Assembly: GCA_964435115.1 (NCBI GenBank)
Contig: CAYSYM010000005.1
Location: 68,224-92,223 of the forward strand
DNA length: 24,000 nt
Direction: 5' to 3'
Source of the DNA: an uncultured Chloroflexota bacterium
GTDB taxonomy: Bacteria; Chloroflexota; UBA6077; CF-72
Positions within the stretch are counted from its first letter, which is position 1, and the number at the start of each line of letters is the position of its first letter. The translations under genes and the position numbers were made by a program. Positions 6,011 to 17,603 of this stretch are shown one piece after another. The notes beneath the pieces were generated by a model. That model made no database searches. It saw only the letters and a program-made list of their open reading frames with translations, and was not told where the DNA came from.

Positions 6011-7219
6011 ATGCAGCTCCCAACGCCGTTCACCCTCGCGCGCCGCGTCGCCGTCGTCATCGCCGTGGCCGCGTTCGCCGCCGCGTGCGCGCCGGCCGCG
6101 CAGCCGACGCCGACCACGGCGCCGGCCAAGCCGACCGAGGCGCCCAAGCCCACCGTGGCGGCCTCGCCCGCCGCGGCGCCGAGCCCCAGCCCGGCCGCCA
6201 AGCCGGCCGCGGCCGCCAGCCCGGCCGCGGGGGCCCCGGGCCCCGTGGCGACCAAGCCCGCGCAGAACCCCACCGACAAGCTCAGCCTGGTCTACGGCAG
6301 CCCGGTGACCCCGCCCAGCCTGGTCCACATGCCGCCGTACATCGCCCAGGCGATGGGCTTCTTCGACGAAGTCGGCTTGAACGTGGAGATCAAGTCCTTT
6401 GAAGGCGGCGTCGGGGCGCTGCGCGGTGGCATCTCGGGCGGCCTGGACATCGTCGGCACCAGCTCCGACCCGCTCTTCGCCGCCATCCAGCAGGGCGCGC
6501 CGGTCAAGGCCATCGGCACCTACGCGCCCAAGCTGAGCGTCGTCATGATGGCCAGGCCGGACATCAAGACGCCCCAGGACCTGAAGGGTCGCAAGCTGGG
6601 CATCCAGGAAGTCGGGGGCTTCAACGACGTCATGTCGCGCCTGGTGCTGCAGAGCGCCGGGATCTCGCCCAACGACGTGCAGTTCGTCACCGTGGCGACC
6701 GCCAACCGGGTGTCCTCGATGGTCCAGGGCCAGACCGAGGCGACCGTGCTGCACGCCGACCAGTACTACGCCGCGCTGGCCGCCGACCCCAACTTCAACG
6801 TCATGGCCCGCCTGTGGGAGGTCGTGCCGGACTGGTGGTACTCGGCGTTCGTCGCGTCGGACGACGTCATCAAGAACAAGCGCGAAGCGTTGGTCCGCTT
6901 CATGACGGCGGTCGTCAAGGCGCAGCGCTTCATGTACACGAACCCCGAGGAGACGAAGCGCATCGCGGTCGAGGAGACGAAGCGCAAGCCGGACGAGATC
7001 GAGAAGGCCTACGCCGACCTGGTCCGGGGCGGCATCTGGAGCGTCAACGACGGCATGCCGCGCAACATGGTCGAGTACACCGTCCGCAAGGAGATCGAGG
7101 TCGGCATCGTCCGGCCGGACAACCCGCCGACCTACGAGCAGATCGTGGACAAGTCGATCATCGACGAGGCCGTCAGGCGCAACGGTGGCGCCTGGACGGG
7201 CGACCCGCGCTGGTACTAG
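6011..7219 (+). CDS. ABC transporter substrate-binding lipoprotein, NMT1/THI5-like (NitT/TauT family)
   Basis: AAGGAG lies 8 nt upstream of ATG 6011. Signal peptide with lipobox (FAAAC) is followed by a ~65-aa Pro/Ala/Thr tether. The NMT1-like domain follows (LSLVYGSPVTPPSLVHMPPYIAQAMGFFDEVGLNVEIKSFEGG...). Confidence 0.85.
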   Translation: MQLPTPFTLARRVAVVIAVAAFAAACAPAAQPTPTTAPAKPTEAPKPTVAASPAAAPSPSPAAKPAAAASPAAGAPGPVATKPAQNPTDKLSLVYGSPVTPPSLVHMPPYIAQAMGFFDEVGLNVEIKSFEGGVGALRGGISGGLDIVGTSSDPLFAAIQQGAPVKAIGTYAPKLSVVMMARPDIKTPQDLKGRKLGIQEVGGFNDVMSRLVLQSAGISPNDVQFVTVATANRVSSMVQGQTEATVLHADQYYAALAADPNFNVMARLWEVVPDWWYSAFVASDDVIKNKREALVRFMTAVVKAQRFMYTNPEETKRIAVEETKRKPDEIEKAYADLVRGGIWSVNDGMPRNMVEYTVRKEIEVGIVRPDNPPTYEQIVDKSIIDEAVRRNGGAWTGDPRWY

Positions 7220-7224
7220 CGCGG

Positions 7225-7266
7225 GTGTCAGGCGTCAGGTATCGGGTATCGGGTGTTGGGTGGTGG
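7225..7266 (+). repeat. tandem heptamer array A (6 degenerate GTGTCGG units, 42 bp)
   Basis: Read directly: GTGTCAG GCGTCAG GTATCGG GTATCGG GTGTTGG GTGGTGG. It starts 6 nt after the SBP stop and runs into GGAGGGG (7267-7273), which serves as SD for GTG 7283. Confidence 0.9.
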
Positions 7267-7282
7267 GGAGGGGGTGCCGGCC

Positions 7283-8161
7283 GTGGCGGGTGTGATCAAC
7301 GGTGACCGGCGGGTGTCGGCGGGCACGTCGCCCTCCGACACCCGGCCCCCGGCCCCTGGCGCCCAGCCCGGGCCGCCGCGGTTGGAGGCCGAGCCGAAGA
7401 TTCGCGTCGAGCGGGCGACACGGACCTTCGTAGACGGCGGGGTCGTCGCCTTCGAGGAGCTCGACCTCGACGTACGCCCCAATGAGACGCTGTGCATCGT
7501 CGGCCCGTCGGGCTGCGGGAAGACCACCCTGCTGCGCAGCCTGGCCGGACTCCTCCCGCTGACGGACGGGCGCGTGCTGCTGGATGGCAAGCCGGTCGCC
7601 AGCCCCACACCCAGCGTGGTGATGGTCTTCCAGCACTTCGGCCTGTTCCCCTGGAAGACGGTGTGGGAGAACGTGACCTACGGCCTGAAGCTGCGGGGCG
7701 TGCCACGCAGCGAGTGGCAGCCGCGAGTGGCCCCGTACCTGGAGCTGGTCGGCCTGGCCGGCTTCGAGGCCATGTACCCCTACCAGCTCTCGGGCGGCAT
7801 GCAGCAGCGCTGCGGCCTGGTGCGCGCCCTGGCGGTCAACCCGGACGTGCTCCTCATGGACGAGCCGTTTGCCGCGCTGGACGCGCAGACGCGCGAGCTG
7901 CTGCAGGAGGAGCTACTGCGCATCCTCGAGCGCGAGCGGAAGACGATGGTGTTCATCACCCACAGCATCGACGAGGCGATCATGCTGGGCGACCGGATCG
8001 TGGTGATGTCCGCGCGGCCGGGCCGAGTGCGCGAGCTGATCGAGGTCGGCCTGCCGCGGCCGCGGAACCTGGAAGCGGTCCGGGCGACCGGCCGCTACGC
8101 CGAGCTGCGGGTCCACATCTGGGAGGAGCTGCGGCCGCAAGCCGCGGCGGCGGTGAGGTGA
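7283..8161 (+). CDS. ABC transporter ATP-binding protein (NitT/TauT family)
   Basis: Walker A GPSGCGKTT, signature LSGGMQQR, Walker B LLMDEPF, H-loop ITHSIDE. GTG 7283 sits 9-11 nt after GGAGGGG. Alternatives are GTG 7253 (inside the repeat), GTG 7292 and TTG 7382. The first ~35 residues are Pro-rich and non-conserved. Confidence 0.85.
   Translation: MAGVINGDRRVSAGTSPSDTRPPAPGAQPGPPRLEAEPKIRVERATRTFVDGGVVAFEELDLDVRPNETLCIVGPSGCGKTTLLRSLAGLLPLTDGRVLLDGKPVASPTPSVVMVFQHFGLFPWKTVWENVTYGLKLRGVPRSEWQPRVAPYLELVGLAGFEAMYPYQLSGGMQQRCGLVRALAVNPDVLLMDEPFAALDAQTRELLQEELLRILERERKTMVFITHSIDEAIMLGDRIVVMSARPGRVRELIEVGLPRPRNLEAVRATGRYAELRVHIWEELRPQAAAAVR
7311..7343. repeat. 9-bp perfect inverted repeat built from the heptamer motif
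   Basis: GGGTGTCGG (7311-7319) and CCGACACCC (7335-7343) are separated by 15 nt, 45 nt downstream of array A, within the 5' end of the ATPase ORF as called. Confidence 0.8.
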
Positions 8162-8176
8162 TCTGAGGTCCCTGCC

Positions 8177-9055
8177 ATGACGTCCACGACGATCCGTGAC
8201 TCAGCCCCGCGTCCGACGGCCGCACCAGACCGCGCCGGCCACGTCGCCGAGCTGGCCGCGCGCGGCCGGGCGCGCGCCGCGGCCCGGCGCCGCCGCGAGC
8301 GCACGTTCGAGCTCGCGGTGCGTCTCGCCTCACTCGCGGCCCTGCTCCTGCTGTGGGAGATCTACGGTCGCAGCGTCAACAAGGCGCTCTTCGCGCCGCC
8401 CAGCGCCGTGCTCCTGGCCGGCACCACGATGGTGCAGAGTGGCGAGCTGTGGCGCTACCTGCAGGGTAGCCTGCAGGTGCTAGCCATCGGGTTCCTGATT
8501 GCCCTCGCCATCGGACTACCGCTGGGTGTGGCGATGGCGCGCAGCAAGATCGTCCGCTACGCCCTGGACTGGTACGTCGACGCCTTCAACTCCACGCCCA
8601 ATGTCGCCCTGGTGCCGCTGATCACCCTCATCTTCGGCTTCGACGTGACGGCCAAGGTGATCGTCGTCGTGATCTCGTCCGTGTTCGTCGTCATCGTCAA
8701 CACGCAGCAAGGGGTGCGGCACGTCGACCGCCGGCTGCTGGAGGTGGCGCACTCCTTCCGGTCGACCGAGCGCCAGCTCTGGGGCGATGTGATCATCCCC
8801 TCCGCGCTGCCCTACATCGCCGCCGGGGTACGGCTGGCGCTCGGGCGTGCTCTGGTGGGGATGGTGGTGGCGGAGTTCTTCACCTCGATCACTGGCGTCG
8901 GCTACCTGATCGTGCGCTACAGCAACTCGTTCCAGCCGGACTACCTGCTGGTTCCCGTCGTCGTCGTCATGGCCCTCGGTATCTTCCTGACGACGATCTC
9001 GCGCCAGGTCGAGAAGCGCATCGCGCCGTGGAACAAGGCCACGTCTGAGGACTGA
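8177..9055 (+). CDS. ABC transporter permease (NitT/TauT family, BPD_transp_1)
   Basis: ATG 8177 with GAGG 8 nt upstream. Multi-helix membrane protein with the binding-protein-dependent permease EAA-like loop region (...LEVAHSFRSTERQLWGDVIIPSALPYIAAGVRLALGRALVGMVVAEF). Confidence 0.85.
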   Translation: MTSTTIRDSAPRPTAAPDRAGHVAELAARGRARAAARRRRERTFELAVRLASLAALLLLWEIYGRSVNKALFAPPSAVLLAGTTMVQSGELWRYLQGSLQVLAIGFLIALAIGLPLGVAMARSKIVRYALDWYVDAFNSTPNVALVPLITLIFGFDVTAKVIVVVISSVFVVIVNTQQGVRHVDRRLLEVAHSFRSTERQLWGDVIIPSALPYIAAGVRLALGRALVGMVVAEFFTSITGVGYLIVRYSNSFQPDYLLVPVVVVMALGIFLTTISRQVEKRIAPWNKATSED

Positions 9056-9062
9056 GCGATGC

Positions 9063-9088
9063 GGACTGAGGGGGCTGCCTCTCAGTCC
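9063..9088 (+). other. intercistronic GC-rich hairpin
   Basis: GGACTGAG (9063-9070) pairs with CTCAGTCC (9081-9088), a perfect 8-bp stem. It is extendable by G-C/G-U pairs to ~11 bp with a 4-nt loop. No U-tract follows. Confidence 0.5.
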
Positions 9089-9100
9089 CCAGTCCTCGGT

Positions 9101-9122
9101 CCGGAGCTGTACCGGAGCTGTA
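9101..9122 (+). repeat. perfect tandem duplication of an 11-mer
   Basis: CCGGAGCTGTA occurs twice (9101-9111, 9112-9122), directly upstream of the GAGGAGAG SD of the cyclase gene. Confidence 0.85.
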
Positions 9123-9139
9123 GAGGAGAGCAACCACCC

Positions 9140-10009
9140 GTGAGAATTGTCGACCTGACCCAGCCGTGGGGCGACCGCATGCCCACCTGGCCGCAGTTCG
9201 CCTCGATCGAGGTGACGGACATCACCACCCACCACCGGGATCGGAAGAGCACGGTGCTGGTCAAGACGAACATGCACACGGGCACCCATATCGACGCCCC
9301 CATCCACTACAGCGAGACCGGCCGGCACCTGGGCGAGATCCCGCTGGCAGACCTCGCCGGTACCGGGCTCGTCATCGACCTGCGCCCGGTCAGCCAGCCC
9401 TGGAGCTACTACTCGCTGGACGACGTGCTGGGCTGCCTGCCCCGCGGCGAGCAGATCCGCGAGGGAGACGTCGTCGTGTTCTACACCGGCTGGGACCGCT
9501 ACAACTGGACGCGGCCTACGCGTGATGACGTGATGTACTTCGACCGCCACCCCGGCCCGCGGCCGGAGGTGATCGACTACCTGATCGACAGGAAGATCAA
9601 GTGGCTGGGCGCCGACCTGGCGTCGATGGACCACTCGCTGCACGTGCGGGTGCGCTGGATGCGGCCGGACCTGGTGCGGGAGTACGAGCAGGTGACCGGC
9701 CGGCCCATCGAGGAGACGCTGCCGGCGAAGGACTTCGAGTACGTCCACTACCGCACGGCGCGCAACAACATCTGCCTGCTCGAGAACCTGGGTGGCGAGA
9801 TCGCCGAGGTGGCCGGCCAGCGCATGGTGCTGGGCGCGTTCCCGTGGCGCTGGATCAACGGCGAGGGGTGCATCTGCCGCGTGGCCGCGTTCCTGGGCGT
9901 GGACGACGTCGAGGGCGACACGCCGCCCGGCGGGCTGCCGCGGGCGGCCGACGCGGGGACGACCCCGGCCCGGATCCTGGCGGACGGCGCGCGCCCGGTG
10001 AGCTACTGA
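9140..10009 (+). CDS. cyclase family protein (kynurenine formamidase / isatin hydrolase-like, PF04199-type)
   Basis: Diagnostic motif HTGTHIDAPIHY (HxGTHxDxPxH). The N-terminus VRIVDLTQPW is typical of the family. GTG 9140 follows GAGGAGAG. Third-position G/C is low between ATG 9059 and 9140 and high after 9140, so the track start 9059 is rejected. Confidence 0.8.
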   Translation: MRIVDLTQPWGDRMPTWPQFASIEVTDITTHHRDRKSTVLVKTNMHTGTHIDAPIHYSETGRHLGEIPLADLAGTGLVIDLRPVSQPWSYYSLDDVLGCLPRGEQIREGDVVVFYTGWDRYNWTRPTRDDVMYFDRHPGPRPEVIDYLIDRKIKWLGADLASMDHSLHVRVRWMRPDLVREYEQVTGRPIEETLPAKDFEYVHYRTARNNICLLENLGGEIAEVAGQRMVLGAFPWRWINGEGCICRVAAFLGVDDVEGDTPPGGLPRAADAGTTPARILADGARPVSY

Positions 10010-10103
10010 TGCGCCGCGCGGAACCTGGAGCTCGGCGCGCGCCGGCCGCACCAGAAGGAGTAAGCGCGAAGGGCTCCGACGCCACGCGAGAGGGAGAGCG
10101 ACC

Positions 10104-11210
10104 GTGACGATAGCTGCCGCAACCGACGTGACTGCCCGCGCTGGCATCCCGGACACCATGCGCGCGCTCGTGTTCACAGCGCCCAACGCGCACGCAGTGC
10201 GCGCGGTGCCGACGCCCCGCCCCGGGCCGATGGAAGTGCTGTGCCGGGTCGACTCGGTGGCCATCTGCGGTACCGACCTGCATATCTACGAGGGCAAGTT
10301 CGCCGGCCGCTGGCCGCGCAGCTACCCGTTCATCCCGGGCCACGAGTGGTCCGGCACGGTGGTCGAGCTGGGCCCGGGGGCCGGTGAGCTGGGCTGGCAG
10401 GTGGGCGATCGGGTCGCCGGTACCTCGCACGCCGGCTGCGGCTACTGCCGCATGTGTGCCACCGGCCGTTACACCCTGTGCGACAACTACGGCAAGGAGC
10501 CCATCCACCATCAGTACGGCCACTACAGCCAGGGCGCCGACGCCCAGTACGTGGTGCACTCCGTCAAGTCGGTCTTCAAGCTGCCGGACGGGCTAGACCT
10601 GCCCTACGGGGCCATGGTGGACACGGCCAGCATCGCGCTGCACTCGGTGAAGCGGCCGGGCATTCGCCCCGGCGAGACCGTCGTAGTGGTGGGCTCCGGC
10701 CCGATGGGCCTGCTCACCGCCGACTGCGCCTACGCGCTCGGCGCCGCCCGCGTGATCGTGACCGGCTCGGGCCAGCGGCTGGAGAAGGCGCGCGAGCTCG
10801 GCTTCCACACGGTGAACTACCGCCAGGAGGACCCCGTGGCGGCGGTCCGCCACCTGACGGACGGCCAGGGCGCGCACGTGGCGGTGGACACCGGCGGCAC
10901 CGTGGACAGCATCCGCCAGGCGGTCGACGTGGTCCGCAAGGGCGGCCGGGTCGCCTTCACCGGCGTGCCGACCGAGGGCACGGTGACCTTCCCCATGCAG
11001 CGCCTCGTGCTGGAGGAGATCGACCTGTACGGTGTGCGAGCCAACCCCAACGCCATGGAGGAGGTGATCGCGCTAATCGCCACCGGGCGCGTCCGGGTGA
11101 AGCCCCTGGTGACCCACACCTTCAGCCTCGACCAGTACGGCGAGGCGCTGCACACCTTCGCCGAACGGGTGGATGGCGCGCTCAAGGTGCTGGTTCGACC
11201 GAATGGCTGA
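10104..11210 (+). CDS. zinc-dependent alcohol/polyol dehydrogenase (MDR superfamily)
   Basis: Catalytic Zn motifs CGTDLH and GHEWSGTVVELG, structural Zn loop GCGYCRMCATGRYTLC, Rossmann motif VVVGSGPMGLL. GTG 10104 follows GGGAGAG. ATG 10158 (MRALVF...) is an alternative start supported by codon bias. Confidence 0.85.
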   Translation: MTIAAATDVTARAGIPDTMRALVFTAPNAHAVRAVPTPRPGPMEVLCRVDSVAICGTDLHIYEGKFAGRWPRSYPFIPGHEWSGTVVELGPGAGELGWQVGDRVAGTSHAGCGYCRMCATGRYTLCDNYGKEPIHHQYGHYSQGADAQYVVHSVKSVFKLPDGLDLPYGAMVDTASIALHSVKRPGIRPGETVVVVGSGPMGLLTADCAYALGAARVIVTGSGQRLEKARELGFHTVNYRQEDPVAAVRHLTDGQGAHVAVDTGGTVDSIRQAVDVVRKGGRVAFTGVPTEGTVTFPMQRLVLEEIDLYGVRANPNAMEEVIALIATGRVRVKPLVTHTFSLDQYGEALHTFAERVDGALKVLVRPNG

Positions 11211-11288
11211 ACGGCGCGCGGGCTCCACGGAGCCCCCGACGCCCGCCCCTGGCCTCGCCGCAAGGTGCGGCGGCGGCCGCCGGCCGGG

Positions 11289-12425
11289 ATGGTGCGCATG
11301 ACCGTGCCCCTCACGGAGGCCCGCGGCGCGCCCGCCCTCCCCGCCAGCATGCGCGCGGTCGTCCTCCCCGAGCCGAACCGGTTCGAGCTGCGCGACGACG
11401 TGCCCGTGGTGCGGCCCGGGCCCGGCCAGGCGCTCCTCAAGGTCAGGAGCACGACGATCTGTGCCACCGACCAGAAGATCTTCGCGGGCCAATTCCCCGG
11501 CACGCGCTTCCCCCACACGCCGGGGCACGAGTTCGCCGGGGAGGTCGTGGCCGCGGGACCAGATGTGGACGAGGTGCAGCCGGGCGATCGCGTCGGCGTG
11601 GAGGTGCACGCCGGCTGCGGGCGGTGCCCGCGCTGCCTCGAAGGGCTCTATCAGCTCTGCGAGAACTACGGCCGTCCCGAGAAGGGGCACGCGCACATTG
11701 GGTTCACCGTCCCTGGCGGTCTGGCGGAGTACGCGGTCGTGCCGCTGAAGGCGCTGCACAAGCTGCCTGCCCGGCTGAGCTGGGACGAAGGCGCCTTCAC
11801 CGACAACGTCGGCGTGGCCCTGTACGCCGTGGAGCGCGGCCGGCTCCAGCCTGGAGAGAGCGTGGCCGTCGTCGGGCCAGGCGCGTTCGGCGGCCTGGCG
11901 ATCCAGGTGGCCCGAGCCATGGGCGCCGGCCGTGTGGTGCTGGTGGGGACCCGCCCCGAGCGCATGGCGCGCATCCAGGGCATGGGGGCGGACGCGCTGG
12001 TGGCGGCGCGCGGCGACGAGGCGGTGGAGCGCGTCAGGCGGACCCTCGGCGGCCGGGGTGCCGACCTGGTCGTCGAGTTCGCCGGCACGCCGGAGGCCGC
12101 CCGCCAGGCGATCCAGATGGCGCGGCGCGGCGGCCGGGTGGTGCTCGCGGGGGCGACCGGCCCGGGCCGCGAGCTGAGCGGCGTCGACCTGAGCACGATC
12201 GTGCGTGGCCACCTGGACATCTACGGCTCGTTGGCGAACCCAAAGGGCGTCTCGCGCCGCGGCCTGGAGCTGATCGCCCGCGGCACGGTGGACGTGAAGC
12301 CGCTGATCACGCACCATTTCCCGCTCGCCCGGTTCGCCGAAGCATGGGCGACGTTCGTCGAGCGACGCGGCGGCGCGATCCGTGTGATGCTGCACCCGCA
12401 CGACGACGGGGTCGGCGAGCGGTGA
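11289..12425 (+). CDS. zinc-dependent alcohol/polyol dehydrogenase (MDR superfamily), second copy
   Basis: CATDQKIF, PGHEFAGEVVAAG, structural Zn loop GCGRCPRCLEGLYQLC, VVGPGAFGGLA. Start uncertain: ATG 11289, ATG 11298 or ATG 11349 (MRAVVLPEPN, family-typical); the track uses 11265. Confidence 0.8.
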   Translation: MVRMTVPLTEARGAPALPASMRAVVLPEPNRFELRDDVPVVRPGPGQALLKVRSTTICATDQKIFAGQFPGTRFPHTPGHEFAGEVVAAGPDVDEVQPGDRVGVEVHAGCGRCPRCLEGLYQLCENYGRPEKGHAHIGFTVPGGLAEYAVVPLKALHKLPARLSWDEGAFTDNVGVALYAVERGRLQPGESVAVVGPGAFGGLAIQVARAMGAGRVVLVGTRPERMARIQGMGADALVAARGDEAVERVRRTLGGRGADLVVEFAGTPEAARQAIQMARRGGRVVLAGATGPGRELSGVDLSTIVRGHLDIYGSLANPKGVSRRGLELIARGTVDVKPLITHHFPLARFAEAWATFVERRGGAIRVMLHPHDDGVGER

Positions 12426-12591
12426 GTCGGGCCGGGCTTCTCCCGCGCGCCTGGGTCCTGGGTGGGGGATCGCGCTACCCTATGCCTCGGTGGTTCACGC
12501 TCTCTCTCCCCGCGCGCGCGATCCGTGGCCCGGTGGCTGGCGCGGACCGGCGCGGGTGCGAAGCGTGGGCTGAGCCGCCGTCGGAGGTCCC

Positions 12592-13542
12592 ATGCCCCTA
12601 GATCCCCAGGCTGAGCGGTTCATCGCGGAGGCGGTCGCGGCCGGCGCGCGGCCCACCCACACGCTCTCCATCGCCGAGGCGCGCCAGGCGCTGCGCACGC
12701 GCCACGAGCAGGGTGGCGGCACGCCGCCGGCGATCGCCTCGGTCGTGGACCGCCAGGTCCCGGGGCCGGCCGGGTCGATCCGGGTACGGGTCTACACGCC
12801 GTTCGGTAGCGGCCCGTTTCCCGTGCTGGTCTACTTGCATGGTGGCGGCTGGCTGCGCGGCGACCTGGAGACGCACGACCGCCTGTGCCGCTACCTGGCC
12901 GACGGCGCCGCCTGCCTGGTGGTGTCGGTCGACTACCGCCTGGCGCCCGAGCACACGTTCCCGGCCCCGGTCGAGGACACTATGGCCGCCACCGAGTGGG
13001 TGGCCGCCCACGCCGCGGAGATCGGCGCTGATCCGACGCGGATCGCCGTCGGCGGCGACAGCGCGGGCGGCAACCTCGCCGCGGTCGTGGCGCTGCTGGC
13101 GCGCGAGCGAGGCCGGCCGCGGCTCGTCTTCCAGCTCCTCGTCTACCCCGTCACCAGCTACGCCTTCGACACCCCGTCCTACCACGAGAACGCCACCGGC
13201 TACGTGCTGACGAAGGCGGACATGGAGTGGTACTGGCACCACTACCTGCCCGACGCCGCCGCCGGGCGCGACGTGCGTGCCTCCCCGCTCCTGGCGGCGG
13301 ACCTCGGCCACCTCCCACCGGCGCTGGTGATCACCGCCGAGTACGACCCGCTGCGCGACGAGGGCGAGGCGTACGCCGCGCGACTCCGCGAGGCGGGTGT
13401 GCCGGCGACCACGCGTCGCTACCCTGGCATGATCCACGGCTTCTTCGCGCTCCCCGGTATCTTCGACCAGGGCCAGCGCGCGATTGACGAGGCGACCGCG
13501 GTCCTGCGCGCCAGCTTCACGCAGGTGGCCGCTCTTCCCTGA
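12592..13542 (+). CDS. alpha/beta hydrolase, hormone-sensitive-lipase-like (family IV) esterase
   Basis: GGAGG lies 5 nt upstream of ATG 12592. Oxyanion motif HGGGW, nucleophile elbow GDSAGG, acid DPLRDEG and His in MIHGF are in canonical order. Confidence 0.85.
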   Translation: MPLDPQAERFIAEAVAAGARPTHTLSIAEARQALRTRHEQGGGTPPAIASVVDRQVPGPAGSIRVRVYTPFGSGPFPVLVYLHGGGWLRGDLETHDRLCRYLADGAACLVVSVDYRLAPEHTFPAPVEDTMAATEWVAAHAAEIGADPTRIAVGGDSAGGNLAAVVALLARERGRPRLVFQLLVYPVTSYAFDTPSYHENATGYVLTKADMEWYWHHYLPDAAAGRDVRASPLLAADLGHLPPALVITAEYDPLRDEGEAYAARLREAGVPATTRRYPGMIHGFFALPGIFDQGQRAIDEATAVLRASFTQVAALP

Positions 13543-13562
13543 CCCACGGAGGTTCGCACCTG

Positions 13563-14555
13563 ATGGCTGTCACTACCCCCACCCCTGCGGCTGTCGTGCA
13601 GCCGACTCCCGACGAGCTGCAGGAGGCACTGCGGCTCATGCTCACCATCCGCCGGTTCGACGAGCAGGCGCTGGCGCTGTACCGGGCGGGCGAGATGCGC
13701 GGGACCACCCACCCGTACATCGGCATGGAAGCGGTGGGCGTGGGCGTGGTGGCGGCCCTCCGTCCAGACGACTACGTCACGAGCACCCATCGCGGTCACG
13801 GCCACACCATCGCCAAGGGCGGCGACATCAGGAAGATGATGGCCGAGCTGCTGGGCAAGGCGACCGGCTACTCGGGCGGGAAAGGCGGCAGCATGCACGT
13901 AGCCGACATGGACAAGCACATGCTGGGCGCCAACGGCATCGTCGGCGGCGGCATGGGGTTGGCCACAGGCGCCGCGCTGACCGCCAGGCTCCAGGGCGCC
14001 GACTCGGTCGCCGTGTGCTTCTTCGGCGACGGCGCGCTCAACCAGGGCATCCTGCACGAGACGAGCAACCTGGCGGCGATCTGGAAGCTGCCGGTCCTGT
14101 TCGTGTGTGAGAACAACCAATACGCCATGTCCACCCGGGCCGAGTGGAGCATAGCCGGCGGCGATCCGGCCGGGCGGGCCGCGGCCTACGGGCTGCCGGG
14201 CGTCACGGTCGACGGCATGGACTTCTTTGCGGTCCACGAGGCTGCCCACCGGCTCGTCGAACGGGCGCGGCGCGGCGAGGGGCCAGCGTACCTGGTCTGT
14301 AACACCTACCGCTACTATGGCCACCACGCCGGCGACCCGCTGAACTACCGGGGGAAGGATGAGGTGGACCGCTGGCGCGAGCAGGACCCGATTGCACGCC
14401 TGCAGCGGGCGCTCATCGAGCGCGGGGTGCTCAGCGCCGGCGAGGCGGCCGAGCTGGAGCAGCGCGTCGCAGCCGAGGTCGAAGCGGCGGTCGCGTTTGC
14501 CAAGGCCAGCCCGGAGCCGACGGTCGACCAACTGATGACCGACATCTACGCGTAG
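13563..14555 (+). CDS. 2-oxoacid (pyruvate/acetoin-type) dehydrogenase E1 component, alpha subunit (TPP-dependent)
   Basis: GGAGG lies 10 nt upstream of the start. Motifs: HRGHGHTIAKG, GGKGGSMH, and the TPP-binding GDGALNQG...VCENNQYAMST. Confidence 0.9.
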   Translation: MAVTTPTPAAVVQPTPDELQEALRLMLTIRRFDEQALALYRAGEMRGTTHPYIGMEAVGVGVVAALRPDDYVTSTHRGHGHTIAKGGDIRKMMAELLGKATGYSGGKGGSMHVADMDKHMLGANGIVGGGMGLATGAALTARLQGADSVAVCFFGDGALNQGILHETSNLAAIWKLPVLFVCENNQYAMSTRAEWSIAGGDPAGRAAAYGLPGVTVDGMDFFAVHEAAHRLVERARRGEGPAYLVCNTYRYYGHHAGDPLNYRGKDEVDRWREQDPIARLQRALIERGVLSAGEAAELEQRVAAEVEAAVAFAKASPEPTVDQLMTDIYA

Positions 14556-14579
14556 GTGTCGGGTGTCGGGTGTCGGGTG
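14556..14579 (+). repeat. tandem heptamer array B (3 perfect GTGTCGG + GTG)
   Basis: Begins at the base immediately after the E1alpha stop TAG (14553-14555). Runs into GAGGAG (14579-14584), the SD of the four-helix-bundle gene. Confidence 0.95.
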
Positions 14580-14593
14580 AGGAGATGCAGACG

Positions 14594-15001
14594 ATGACGG
14601 CGATGGCTGGCTACCGAGAGCTCCGGGTCTGGCAGGCAGCGATGGACCTGGTGGAGGGCGTCTACCGGCACACGCAGACCTTCCCGAAGCAGGAGGTCTA
14701 CGGACTGGCCGCGCAGCTTCAGCGGGCGGCGGTTTCTATCCCGGCCAACGTCGCGGAAGGACACGTCCGCGACCACCTCAAGGAGTACTTGCGGCACATC
14801 TCGGTGGCGCAGGGCTCGCTGGCCGAGCTCGAGACACAGCTCGAGATCGCCCGGCGACTGGGCTACGTCGAGCGAGCCGCCCATCGAGAGCTCCTCGAGC
14901 AGACGGCTTCCATCGGCAAGCAGCTCTATGCGCTGCGCAACTCTCTCGGCAAGAAGCTCAACACTGAATCGACGGCGCACGTGGAGCCCTCATGGCCGTA
15001 G
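14594..15001 (+). CDS. four helix bundle protein (23S rRNA intervening-sequence protein / S23p family, TIGR02436-like)
   Basis: Family-typical sequence [18 protein letters not shown]...[27 protein letters not shown]...[18 protein letters not shown]. In-frame starts are GTG 14570 and ATG 14585/14594/14603. ATG 14594 has the best spacing (9 nt) from GAGGAG. Stop TAG 14999-15001 overlaps the E1beta ATG 14992. Confidence 0.85.
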
Positions 15002-16026
15002 CAACTGCCCCCGACGCCCGACACCCGACACCCGACACCCGACACCTGACCTACGCTGAGGCGCTGAACGAGGCGCTGCGCGAGGAGATGCGCCGCGATC
15101 CCACCGTCTTCGTCCTGGGCGAGGACGTGGCCATCTGGGGCGGCGGCGGCATCTTCGGCGTCACCAAGGGGCTGGTGGACGAGTTCGGCCCCGAGCGGGT
15201 GCGGGACACGCCCATCTCTGAGGAGGCGATCGCCGCGGTCGCCATCGGCGCGGCGGCGACCGGCAGTCGGCCGGTGGCGGAGATCATGTACGTGGACTTC
15301 ATCGGCCTGGCGATGGAGCCGATCGTCAACCAGGCCGCCAAGCTGCGCTACATGTTCGGCGGCAAGGCGAAGGTACCGATGGTGCTCCGCGCCCAGGAGG
15401 GCGCCGGCCGCGGCAACGCCGCCCAGCACAGCCAGAGCCTGGAGGCGTGGTTCTGCCACATCCCCGGCCTCAAGGTGGTCACGCCCAGCACCCCCTACGA
15501 CGCCAAGGGGCTGCTCAAGACCGCCGTCCGCGACGACAACCCGGTCATCTTCCTCGAGCACAAGGCGCTCTACTTCACCAAGGGGTCGGTGCCCACGGAG
15601 GAGTACACGCTCCCGCTCGGGCTGGCCGACGTGAAGCGCGAGGGCCGGCACGTCACCGTCGTCGGCGTCCACACCATGGTGGGCAAGGCGCTCCAGGCGG
15701 CCGAGCGGCTCGCCGCGGAGGGCATCGAGCTGGAGGTGATCGACCCGCGCTCCCTGGTGCCGCTGGACGAGGAGACGATTGTCAGCTCGGTCAGGAAGAC
15801 GGGCCGGCTGATCGTGAGCCACGAGGCGTACACGCGGGGCGGCTACGGCGGCGAGGTCATCGCCCGCGTCGTCGAGTCCGCCTTCGACTACCTGGACGCG
15901 CCGCCCGTGCGCGTGTGCGCCCGGGACGTGCCCGTGCCCTACAGTGCCGTACTGGAGACGGCGGCCCTGCCGCAGGTCGACGACCTCGTCGCCGCGGCCC
16001 GGGCGCTGGTGGGGAAGGAGCTGTAG
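14992..16026 (+). CDS. 2-oxoacid dehydrogenase E1 component, beta subunit
   Basis: Conserved body [28 protein letters not shown]... with transketolase-like pyrimidine-binding and C-terminal domains. The only canonical start upstream of the conserved region is ATG 14992 (GGAG 5 nt upstream). The first ~18 codons ([18 protein letters not shown]) are encoded by the cassette end and heptamer array C. Confidence 0.85.
15011..15052 (-). repeat. tandem heptamer array C (CCGACAC orientation on + strand; 6 units, 42 bp, 4 perfect)
   Basis: Read directly: CCGACGC CCGACAC CCGACAC CCGACAC CCGACAC CTGACCT. It is the inverse orientation of arrays A and B and lies inside the E1beta ORF, translated as [14 protein letters not shown]. 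Confidence 0.95.
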
Positions 16027-16031
16027 CGTCC

Positions 16032-17603
16032 ATGGCGACGCCGGTGACGATGCCGATGCTCGGGCTGACGATGGAGGAGGGCACGGTTGCGCAGTGGCTG
16101 AAGGGCGAGGGCGAGGCGGTGCGGAAGGACGAGCCGCTCCTCACCGTCGAGATCGACAAGGGCACGGTCGAGGTGCCCGCGCCGGCGAGCGGCGTGCTGC
16201 GGCGGATCGTCGTCCAGCCCGGCCAGACGGTGCCGATCAAGACGCTCATCGCGGAGATCGCCGCGCCCGGCGAGGCGGGTGAAGGGGCGCCCGCGGGCCC
16301 GGCGTCTGTTCTGCAGCAGACGGCTCCGGCCGGGGTGGCCCCGGCGCCAGCGGTCCCGCCCGACACCGGCGCTCCGCCGAGCCCGGCGCAGGTGGCCGCC
16401 GCCACGGTCGCCTCCGCCCCGCCAGCCGCCACCGTGGCCCCGACACCCGATACCCGATACCCGGCACCCGAGACCCGGCTGTTCGCGTCGCCGCGGGCGC
16501 GCGGGCGCGCCGGCGCGCTGGGGATCGAGCTGGCGCTGGTCCAGGGGACCGGCCCGCGCGGACGCATCGTCGAGGAGGATGTGCTCGCCTTCGCCCAGGC
16601 GGCCCCGGCTCAGCCAGTGGGCCAGAGCCTGACGGCACGATTGGGCGCAGGTGGGGCCCACTTGCCGAGCGCCCTCGGGAGTCAGCGCGTAGCGCCTGGC
16701 GCCGAGCCGTCGCGGGTCCCGGCGACGCCGCTCGCCCGACGGATGGCGCTGGAGCACGGGGTGGCGTTGAGCGCGGTCCAGGGCACCGGTCCGGGTGGGC
16801 GCGTCACCCACGAGGACGTGCTGCGCGCGGCTGAGGCGCGCCTGGCGGGCACGGGCGCCGAGGCGGGGGCCACGGCCCCTGCGCCGGCACCCGAGACCCT
16901 GCACCCGGTCCCTGTCGAGCCGCTCAGCCGCCTGCGGCGGATCACCGCCGAGCGCATGGCCGCCTCGGCGCGCAGCGTGGCCCGGGTCACGCTGTTCCTC
17001 GAGGCGGACCTGACCGAGGCGGCCCGGTTCCGGCGCCAGCTCGCCCCCGAGCTCGCGCGGCTCGGCGTGGCGAAGCTGCCGTGGGACGCGCTCTTCGCCA
17101 AGGCGGCCGGCCTGGCGCTGGCCGAGCACCCGGGCGTGAACGCCCAGTGGGTCGACGGCCAGGGGCTGCGCCGGCTCGCCACGGTCAACGTGGGGGTGGC
17201 GGTGGCGCTGGAGCCCGAGGGGCTCGTGGTGCCGGTGCTGCGCCAGGCCGACACGCGGTCGCTGCGCGAGCTGGCGGCTGACGTCCTGGCGCTGGCGGAC
17301 CGGGCGCGGCACAATCGCCTGCGCCCGGGCGAGATGCAGGGGGCGACCTTCACCATCACCAACCTCGGCCAGTACCGCGTCGACGGCTTCACGCCGATCG
17401 TGAATCCGCCTGAGACGGCCATCCTGGGGGTCGGGCGCATCGCCGACAAGCCTGCCGTCGTCGACGGCCAGCTCCAGGTCCGCACCCAGTGCACGCTGTC
17501 GCTCAGCTTCGACCACCGGGTCGTGGACGGCGCGCCCGCCGCCGCCTTCCTCGCGCGCCTGGCCGAGCTGCTCGAGCGGCCGTACGCGCTCCTGGGGCTC
17601 TGA
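16032..17603 (+). CDS. 2-oxoacid dehydrogenase E2 (dihydrolipoamide acyltransferase)
   Basis: ATG 16032 follows AAGGAG. Lipoyl domain with TVEIDKGTVEVPAP (Lys codon 16158-16160). Two peripheral-subunit-binding-like segments. Catalytic domain ends with SLSFDHRVVDGA. The 718-aa track ORF from 15447 is an upstream out-of-gene extension. Confidence 0.9.
   Translation: MATPVTMPMLGLTMEEGTVAQWLKGEGEAVRKDEPLLTVEIDKGTVEVPAPASGVLRRIVVQPGQTVPIKTLIAEIAAPGEAGEGAPAGPASVLQQTAPAGVAPAPAVPPDTGAPPSPAQVAAATVASAPPAATVAPTPDTRYPAPETRLFASPRARGRAGALGIELALVQGTGPRGRIVEEDVLAFAQAAPAQPVGQSLTARLGAGGAHLPSALGSQRVAPGAEPSRVPATPLARRMALEHGVALSAVQGTGPGGRVTHEDVLRAAEARLAGTGAEAGATAPAPAPETLHPVPVEPLSRLRRITAERMAASARSVARVTLFLEADLTEAARFRRQLAPELARLGVAKLPWDALFAKAAGLALAEHPGVNAQWVDGQGLRRLATVNVGVAVALEPEGLVVPVLRQADTRSLRELAADVLALADRARHNRLRPGEMQGATFTITNLGQYRVDGFTPIVNPPETAILGVGRIADKPAVVDGQLQVRTQCTLSLSFDHRVVDGAPAAAFLARLAELLERPYALLGL
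16440..16481 (-). repeat. tandem heptamer array D (CCGACAC orientation; 6 degenerate units, 42 bp) inside the E2 linker
   Basis: Read directly: CCGACAC CCGATAC CCGATAC CCGGCAC CCGAGAC CCGGCTG. It is in frame and translated as PTPDTRYPAPETRL. Confidence 0.9.

Follow-up and report, generated by a model that had tools for sequence, protein, structure and literature searches.

GGGTRTY heptamer arrays dispersed at gene boundaries in the genome of an uncultured Chloroflexota bacterium

Described heptameric repeats and the present family

Reports of dispersed heptamer repeats go back to 1990 for cyanobacteria, with Xanthomonas and Beggiatoaceae added later. The present work concerns four tandem arrays of 7-nt units, referred to as A, B, C, and D, located in a DNA stretch of 24,000 nucleotides (hereinafter, the window) of an uncultured Chloroflexota bacterium. 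The window corresponds to G000:C5:68224-92223, where G000 is the source genome (3.77 Mb, 105 contigs, 71% GC, 90% complete); the other G-numbers and the L-numbers refer, respectively, to the genomes and the loci compared. The analysis shows that the four arrays are members of a genome-wide family with the unit GGGTRTY, of the same kind as the Xanthomonas and Nostoc repeats, and makes it rather likely that this family can be accounted for by slippage combined with a behavior resembling that of repetitive extragenic palindromic (REP) sequences. Taken alone, the GGGTRTY family is an ordinary member of a described class of repeats.

The G-rich heptameric simple sequence repeats (SSRs) described by Rehm et al. 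(2015; PMC4692102) have the unit GGGAATC in Xanthomonas and GGGGA(C/T)T in Nostoc PCC 7120. They are dispersed, intergenic in about 90% of cases, most often made up of four units, and found in convergent inverted pairs. Their distance is 28 nt from the 5′ neighboring open reading frame (ORF) and 160 nt from the 3′ one; they follow stop codons on the sense strand or precede start codons on the antisense strand, are rare between divergent genes, and show no tie to surface genes, and both their G-quadruplex (G4) folding and their transcription have been shown (PMC4692102). The family described here shares with them the G3N4 heptamer, the dozens to hundreds of dispersed arrays, the mode of four units, the convergent inverted pairs, the greater closeness to the 5′ ORF (16 vs. 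80 nt here), the placement after stops in sense or before starts in antisense, the rarity in divergent spacers, and the independence from surface or variable genes. The preliminary description of the window, according to which the arrays matched nothing recognized, is superseded on this point. The two systems differ in the unit, in the phylum, in the GC content of the genome (71% here), in the intergenic share (75% here), in the larger translated share (15 of the 63 arrays found here lie in genes, which are housekeeping ones), and in the G4 folding, which here is only predicted; moreover, one pair of arrays hosts a gene of the PF05635 family, a feature not mentioned in PMC4692102.

Direct repeats with the unit TAACTGA occur in Beggiatoaceae, Cyanobacteria, and Bacteroidetes, with a patchy cross-phylum distribution that suggests a horizontal spread (MacGregor 2015; PMC4679880). 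These and the cyanobacterial short tandemly repeated repetitive (STRR) sequences resemble the present arrays in being tandem 7-nt units, intergenic, close to start codons, and patchy across distant phyla. However, they are AT-richer, and TAACTGA contains forward stop codons and is inverted in just 1 of 170 sets, whereas the GGGTRTY units are free of stop codons in six frames and often paired. The likeness to STRR heptamers drawn in the preliminary description goes, then, in the right direction, even though the arrays are not STRR sequences, whose unit differs; GGGTGTC itself is abundant in a Coleofasciculus cyanobacterium. As for the REP sequences of Proteobacteria, together with the bacterial interspersed mosaic elements (BIMEs) and the REP-derived hairpin elements (REPINs), they are likewise short, abundant, intergenic, hairpin-forming, and located at cistron ends, but they are single imperfect palindromes moved by a REP-associated tyrosine transposase (RAYT), whereas in the present family the arms consist of tandem heptamers, and the search for a RAYT gene in the source genome was negative. 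Lastly, the ORF-bearing intervening sequences (IVS) of 23S rRNA (S23p/PF05635) resemble the locus formed by B and C, where the gene lies in the loop of a long stem, as it does at many operon junctions of related genomes. The likeness fits B/C only, since A, D, and about 50 other loci do not contain such a gene, and an rRNA-type processing is not simply transferable to B/C because an excision by RNase III would cut inside the pdhB codons.

Genome-wide census, position, and polarity of the arrays

All the arrays of at least three units were collected from the whole source genome by a unit-based scan. This census disclosed 63 arrays on more than 40 contigs; one of them is located 15 nt from a contig end (G000:C17:15-49), so that some assembly breaks may hide further arrays. 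The preliminary description had favored a dispersed repeat family over local slippage noise, and the census bears it out: A–D are not the only copies but four among 63, with a strong bias in position and polarity. The number of units per array has a mode of four (three units in 22 arrays, four in 27, five in 8, six in 2, seven in 2, eight in 1, and nine in 1), and the 15 arrays embedded in genes have three to five units each. An enrichment in multiples of 21 bp, which the preliminary description had expected of a 42-bp format, does not emerge from these counts, which refute that format; the 42-bp size is incidental.

The logo of the unit, obtained from 257 units, is GGGTRTY; GGG is present in at least 98% of them, and the variation consists almost entirely of transitions at two positions. 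The consecutive G3 tracts per array have a mode of 4, and four such tracts are present in 35 of the 63 arrays and absent in 28. GTATCGG is the third commonest unit (33/257) and is often found in tandem; hence, the GTATCGG pairs that had suggested a copying between A and D do not need such an explanation. A motif-free scan of the genome for period 7 retrieved 33 arrays, about 28 of which are variants of one unit, the one that defines the family. Furthermore, a three-unit pattern (up to two mismatches) gave 48 matches in the genome vs. 0 for the reversed-pattern control, and perfect arrays of at least three copies were 18 at period 7 vs. 0, 1, 0, 0, and 0 at periods 8 to 12; chance does not account for such numbers.

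The position of the arrays was evaluated on gene boundaries predicted by a home-made gene caller based on third-position GC content and codon scores (3340 genes, 86% of the genome coding). Of the 63 arrays, 47 fall between genes, 15 within genes, and one across a boundary (binomial P 1e-28), a positional bias of the sort that the preliminary description had proposed to look for. When the G-rich strand is read, the median gap to the gene boundary is 16 nt at the 5′ end vs. 80 nt at the 3′ end, and 41 arrays vs. 6 are nearer to the gene on the 5′ side (Wilcoxon 6e-7). In nearly every intergenic array, this 5′-side boundary is either the stop codon of a gene on the same strand or the start codon, with its Shine–Dalgarno sequence, of a gene on the opposite strand. 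The C-rich strand is the one found in the mRNA for about two thirds of the gene-proximal arrays, and divergent spacers host just 5 of the 47 intergenic arrays (11%), though they account for 31% of the intergenic bases.

A second regularity concerns the inverted pairs. In the source genome, the 12 pairs of inverted neighbors are all in the order G-arm, loop, C-arm, with no C-first pair; among 120 loci from many other phyla, the same count is 26 to 0. Adopting as a criterion at least 11 of 14 matching positions within 150 nt of the array, a complementary partner is present on the 3′ side of 26 of 62 arrays (about 40%) and on the 5′ side of none of the 62. The single arrays have the same 5′ polarity (23 vs. 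3). The hairpins predicted for the short inverted pairs have energies from -35 to -58 kcal/mol, and no common sequence was found among the loops of different hairpins.

As to the distribution of the pattern outside the source genome, among 30 relatives it is limited to three, i.e., G005 (14 matches), G019 (5), and G006 (1), so that the presence in related genomes, also raised in the preliminary description, is restricted to a few of them. In a phylum sample of 301 genomes (0.9–8 Mb), the pattern is present in 15, with only four others having at least eight matches. Four exact units were traced to over 120 loci, which belong, among others, to Planctomycetota, Cyanobacteriota, Acidobacteriota, Actinomycetota, and Chloroflexota. 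Whole-genome counts amount to 535 for a Coleofasciculus, 242 for an acidobacterium, 73 for a member of the Phycisphaeraceae, and 44 for a Chloroflexota metagenome-assembled genome (MAG). Units of the GGGTRTY type form dispersed families sporadically in distant lineages, in at least four other phyla.

The arrays of the window and the pdhA-pdhB junction

Period-7 repeats are confirmed for all four arrays. At this period, Tandem Repeats Finder detects B at 14555–14579 (3.6 copies, 100%), C at 15010–15050 (5.9 copies, 94%), and D at 16439–16477 (5.6 copies, 84%), and of A the core alone (7238–7254). The preliminary description had assigned exactly six units (42 bp) to A, C, and D; this is true only if the degenerate ends are counted. 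With a strict unit defined by at most one mismatch to GTGTCGG, GTATCGG, or GTGTTGG, the numbers are 4, 5, and 5, respectively. No Rfam family matched the window.

Array A (7225–7266, + strand, the G-rich strand being the sense one) consists of four good units (7239–7266) preceded by two degenerate ones. It occupies most of the 63-nt spacer between a gene for an NMT1-like binding protein, with the stop codon TAG at 7217–7219, and that of an ATP-binding cassette (ABC) ATPase, whose Shine–Dalgarno sequence and GTG start are at 7283. According to a G-quadruplex-aware folding, the minimum-energy structure of A contains a G4 (-25.3 vs. -18.2 kcal/mol).

Array B (14556–14579, + strand) is made up of three perfect GTGTCGG units plus GTG, and its first base is the one directly following the stop codon of pdhA (E1 alpha). 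It is the 5′ G-arm of a hairpin whose 3′ arm, complementary to B, is array C (15011–15045, - strand, with the C-rich strand as sense; five units). The predicted B:C duplex is about 27 bp long (-63 kcal/mol), and B and C also pair with each other when the 520-nt transcript is folded to its minimum energy. Array C is translated among the first pdhB codons, in the variable N-terminal extension of PdhB (E1 beta). Its supposed sixth unit, CTGACCT (15046–15052), corresponds to the conserved Leu-Thr-Tyr that opens the PdhB core and is also present in orthologs devoid of the array. The loop contains a gene of the PF05635 family, a four-helix-bundle family of 23S rRNA intervening-sequence proteins, at 14594–15001 (+ strand, E 1.5e-35); it probably starts with the ATG at 14594, with AGGAG 9 nt upstream, in a frame open from 14570.

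Array D (16440–16481, - strand, the C-rich strand being the sense one) comprises five units (16440–16474) and one unit with three mismatches. It is translated as approximately residues 137–150 of E2, which belong to the Ala/Pro linker joining the lipoyl domain to the first subunit-binding domain; on the basis of the alignment, this linker is hypervariable in length among the orthologs, none of which contains the array. E2 also carries two peripheral-subunit-binding domains (16479–16829), both conserved in all the close orthologs, and this duplication is therefore old and unrelated to array D. That C and D lie in ORFs encoding near-identical peptides had been remarked in the preliminary description; their translation is confirmed, but the likeness of the peptides is an automatic outcome of the periodicity, because 7 and 3 are coprime and every frame of one strand yields the same cyclic heptapeptide.

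The other arrays inside genes occupy similar places. Mapping onto Pfam domains located them in the inter-domain linker of CarA, in the linker preceding the Smr domain of MutS2, in linkers of histidine kinases, in a loop of a molybdenum hydroxylase, and at the N-termini of an acyl-CoA synthetase and of a NuoG-like protein. In leuS, the reading frame runs through a whole G-first hairpin, whose two 4-unit arms and 18-nt loop are thus translated at the border of the LeuRS editing domain (G000:C9:19563-19636, L161). The four main units, as can be read directly from their sequence, are without stop codons in every frame of both strands, which explains why in-frame arrays are tolerated. On the whole, the hosts are housekeeping genes (pdh, carA, leuS, mutS2), the arrays inside genes are in linkers, and most of the arrays are located 3′ of stop codons; the arrays sit almost solely where the sequence may vary, i.e., in spacers against a stop or a start codon, linkers, loops, and N-terminal extensions. 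Phase-variation (contingency) SSRs were also considered and rejected, the hosts being housekeeping rather than surface or variable genes.

The comparison of the pdhA-pdhB junction in different genomes allowed the gain of the arrays to be followed. The native start of pdhB and its first codons (14992–15010, + strand; Met-Ala-Val-Ala) overlap the stop codon of the four-helix-bundle gene and lie in the loop of the hairpin. In the PdhB alignment, orthologs having neither array nor cassette open with the same ATGGCCGTAGC-type sequence; since these Met-Ala-Val-Ala codons are shared, the start at 14992 is native and was not donated by the cassette. In the alignment of the junction, the G-arm plus 37 nt falls between the stop and the start codons, and the C-arm falls in codons 6–14, with its last unit aligning to native sequence. 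Hence, each arm occupies a point of its own, and the native start codon and first codons still lie between them.

Most orthologs show at this junction a plain ATGA/GTGA stop–start overlap. At the very same place as B/C, G005 carries a G-first hairpin that is made up of GTGTTGG units and contains no gene. Other orthologs have hairpins of the GGTAGTG type, of the TTGTCAG type, or of GGGTTYC; in others still, the N-terminus of PdhB contains one C-type array. The junction is thus a hot spot, where scattered lineages carry either single arrays or heptamer hairpins, the latter built from at least four different units (window 14556–15052 vs. L127, L134, L138, L201, L208, and L213). Mapped onto a PdhB tree of 36 orthologs, the junction-array trait requires six changes, at least four of which are forced by well-supported branches. 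The close sister of G005 has no hairpin at this junction, and none of five syntenic junctions that carry arrays or hairpins in G005 carries them in the source genome; at one of these, the genes are 6 nt apart in the latter vs. a hairpin of about 100 nt in G005. The arrays were gained lineage by lineage rather than inherited.

Origin and spread of the arrays

On these grounds, the most likely scheme is that the arrays arise, or land, at gene boundaries, where replication slippage would then lengthen, shorten, and homogenize them, while template switching would keep the inverted partner matched. Copies inside genes would survive thanks to the main units being stop-free in six frames. Once transcribed, the pairs are predicted to form stems of high stability, and G-quadruplexes may be formed by single G-arrays. 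Where the arrays act at all, they would most likely do so as REP-like structured elements at cistron boundaries, with an effect on the stability or processing of transcript ends or on the accessibility of the next start codon; the hairpin is, in addition, where the four-helix-bundle (IVS-type) gene is hosted, as at B/C.

Several points weigh against this scheme. Any function of the arrays is inferred, and the statistics on position and polarity depend on crude, home-made gene calls. Slippage from local seeds leaves unexplained both the occurrence of one unit in about 85% of the period-7 arrays of the source genome and the dispersal of the same unit in several phyla. Nor does the scheme provide a demonstrated cause of the exclusive G-first polarity. 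The non-Watson–Crick positions (G:U vs. A:C) between hairpin arms, counted according to the direction of transcription in search of selection at the RNA level, show no trend, the numbers being too small. Lastly, given that only 35 of the 63 arrays have four G3 tracts and that G3-free arrays (TTGTCAG, GGTAGTG) are found at the pdh junction of relatives, G-quadruplex folding is not the property unifying the arrays. That the unit is so homogeneous in the genome and recurs in different phyla suggests that the account probably lacks an agent able to copy or spread the arrays in a sequence-specific manner, and the four-helix-bundle cassette is the sole candidate in view for this agent.

The cassette itself recurs. 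B/C and its PF05635 gene share with L141–L152, L032, and L069 the same build, in which the gene lies in the loop of inverted arrays, between a stop codon and the next start codon. Literature searches retrieved no description of an IVS-type cassette with a PF05635 gene between inverted heptamer arrays. In the source genome, there are just two PF05635 genes, one of which is that in the B/C loop. The second one (G000:C3:126560-127160, L147) is flanked by pyrimidine/purine-rich heptamers of the GGAAATA type, with same-strand arrays on both sides and an inverted copy further downstream; the GGAAATA unit is not dispersed in this genome.

The cassette might be a small autonomous mobile or RNA-processing element that seeds and spreads the arrays, the gene-less hairpins and the solo arrays being its non-autonomous copies, its footprints, or targets that the protein makes in trans; this is possible, though doubtful. 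Apart from B and C bracketing such a gene, nearly all the PF05635 genes of 11 related genomes are bracketed by inverted heptamer arrays, with locus-specific units, between a stop codon and the next start codon. Arms made up of GGGTGTC surround a PF05635 gene in a Chloroflexota MAG, in a Thermoleophilaceae MAG, and in the low-GC Aquimarina; in Aquimarina sp. (L065 2540-3090), an AT-rich gene has on its 3′ side a GC-rich GACACCC array of about seven units, and the arms of this cassette are the only GGGTGTC arrays of the genome. Among 300 genomes sampled from the phylum, 14 have at least one array match, and 10 of these contain PF05635, vs. 69 of the 286 without a match (Fisher P 4e-4, uncorrected for relatedness). 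Nevertheless, only 1 of the 12 inverted pairs of the source genome contains a PF05635 gene, no remnant of a four-helix-bundle gene was detected within 500 nt of the other arrays (all E > 0.1), the loops have no sequence in common, and the native pdhB start inside the loop implies arms set at two separate points rather than the ends of one insert. Furthermore, the type of arm unit does not track the tree of 16 four-helix-bundle proteins (no clean correspondence, the wrongly extracted row L069 being disregarded), and the array-rich G080 (95% complete) shows no PF05635. The protein is also a small helical bundle for which no catalytic activity is known. The orthologous spacers are too diverged for target-site duplications to be compared.

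A related and rather tentative idea is that the arrays and the PF05635 genes each represent one half of a single undescribed system, in which the cassette would import the unit horizontally and the protein, or a partner recruited by it, would recognize the arrays and cause them to be copied, as G-first hairpins, into stop/start junctions. If true, this would explain why the GGGTGTC family is found in at least five phyla and why one operon junction was hit repeatedly. The source genome is a clean GC-rich example that offers three handles: the G-arm-first rule, 38:0 across phyla; the pdhA-pdhB junction, where hairpins of different heptamer units were acquired on at least four occasions; and the physical and statistical tie of the arrays to PF05635 genes. 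The three together make the origin of heptamer repeats testable.

It is unlikely that the arrays are dedicated G4 regulatory elements, selected for the folding of four G3 tracts in DNA or RNA near genes. The invariant GGG of the unit, the modal array of four units with four G3 tracts, the G4 predicted in array A, and the G4 formed in vitro by related units (PMC4692102) all speak for such a role; on the other side, 28 of the 63 arrays lack four tracts, G3-free units occupy the same junction in relatives, about 40% of the arrays have a complementary arm, with which pairing would take place at the expense of the G4, and for about two thirds of the gene-proximal arrays, it is the C-rich strand that is in the mRNA.

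A frame-preserving 42-bp insertion module (6 units = 14 codons) copied between sites is highly improbable: six units can be made out in A, C, and D when the degenerate ends are included, and C and D are translated, but six units are found in only 2 of the 63 arrays, the 15 arrays in genes have 3–5 units, the supposed sixth unit of C belongs to the native coding sequence of pdhB, and identical peptides follow automatically from the 7/3 periodicity. Equally hard to sustain are REP/REPIN-type elements moved by a RAYT (Y1) transposase, or repeats made at DNA ends by a reverse transcriptase or a telomerase-like enzyme: the intergenic inverted pairs do resemble REPINs, and the extension of the 3′ ends on both sides of a break would be expected to give only the G-first order, but the arms are tandem heptamers of variable composition rather than one conserved palindrome, and searches of the 90%-complete source genome revealed neither a Y1 transposase (PF01797) nor a reverse transcriptase (PF00078).

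Some minor observations concern the pdh genes and the neighboring units. No database record of the exact PdhA protein was found, and the exact junction pattern was not found in metagenome contigs; the closest metagenome PdhB is 88% identical to that of the window. The source genome, like its relatives, has at least eight E1-beta paralogs, belonging to 2-oxoacid dehydrogenase clusters. At the 3′ end of a gene (G000:C57:15440-15510), an array of about four copies of GGACTGA adjoins a GTGTTGG array, and GGACTGA is also the arm unit of the four-helix-bundle cassette in the relative G029 (L151).

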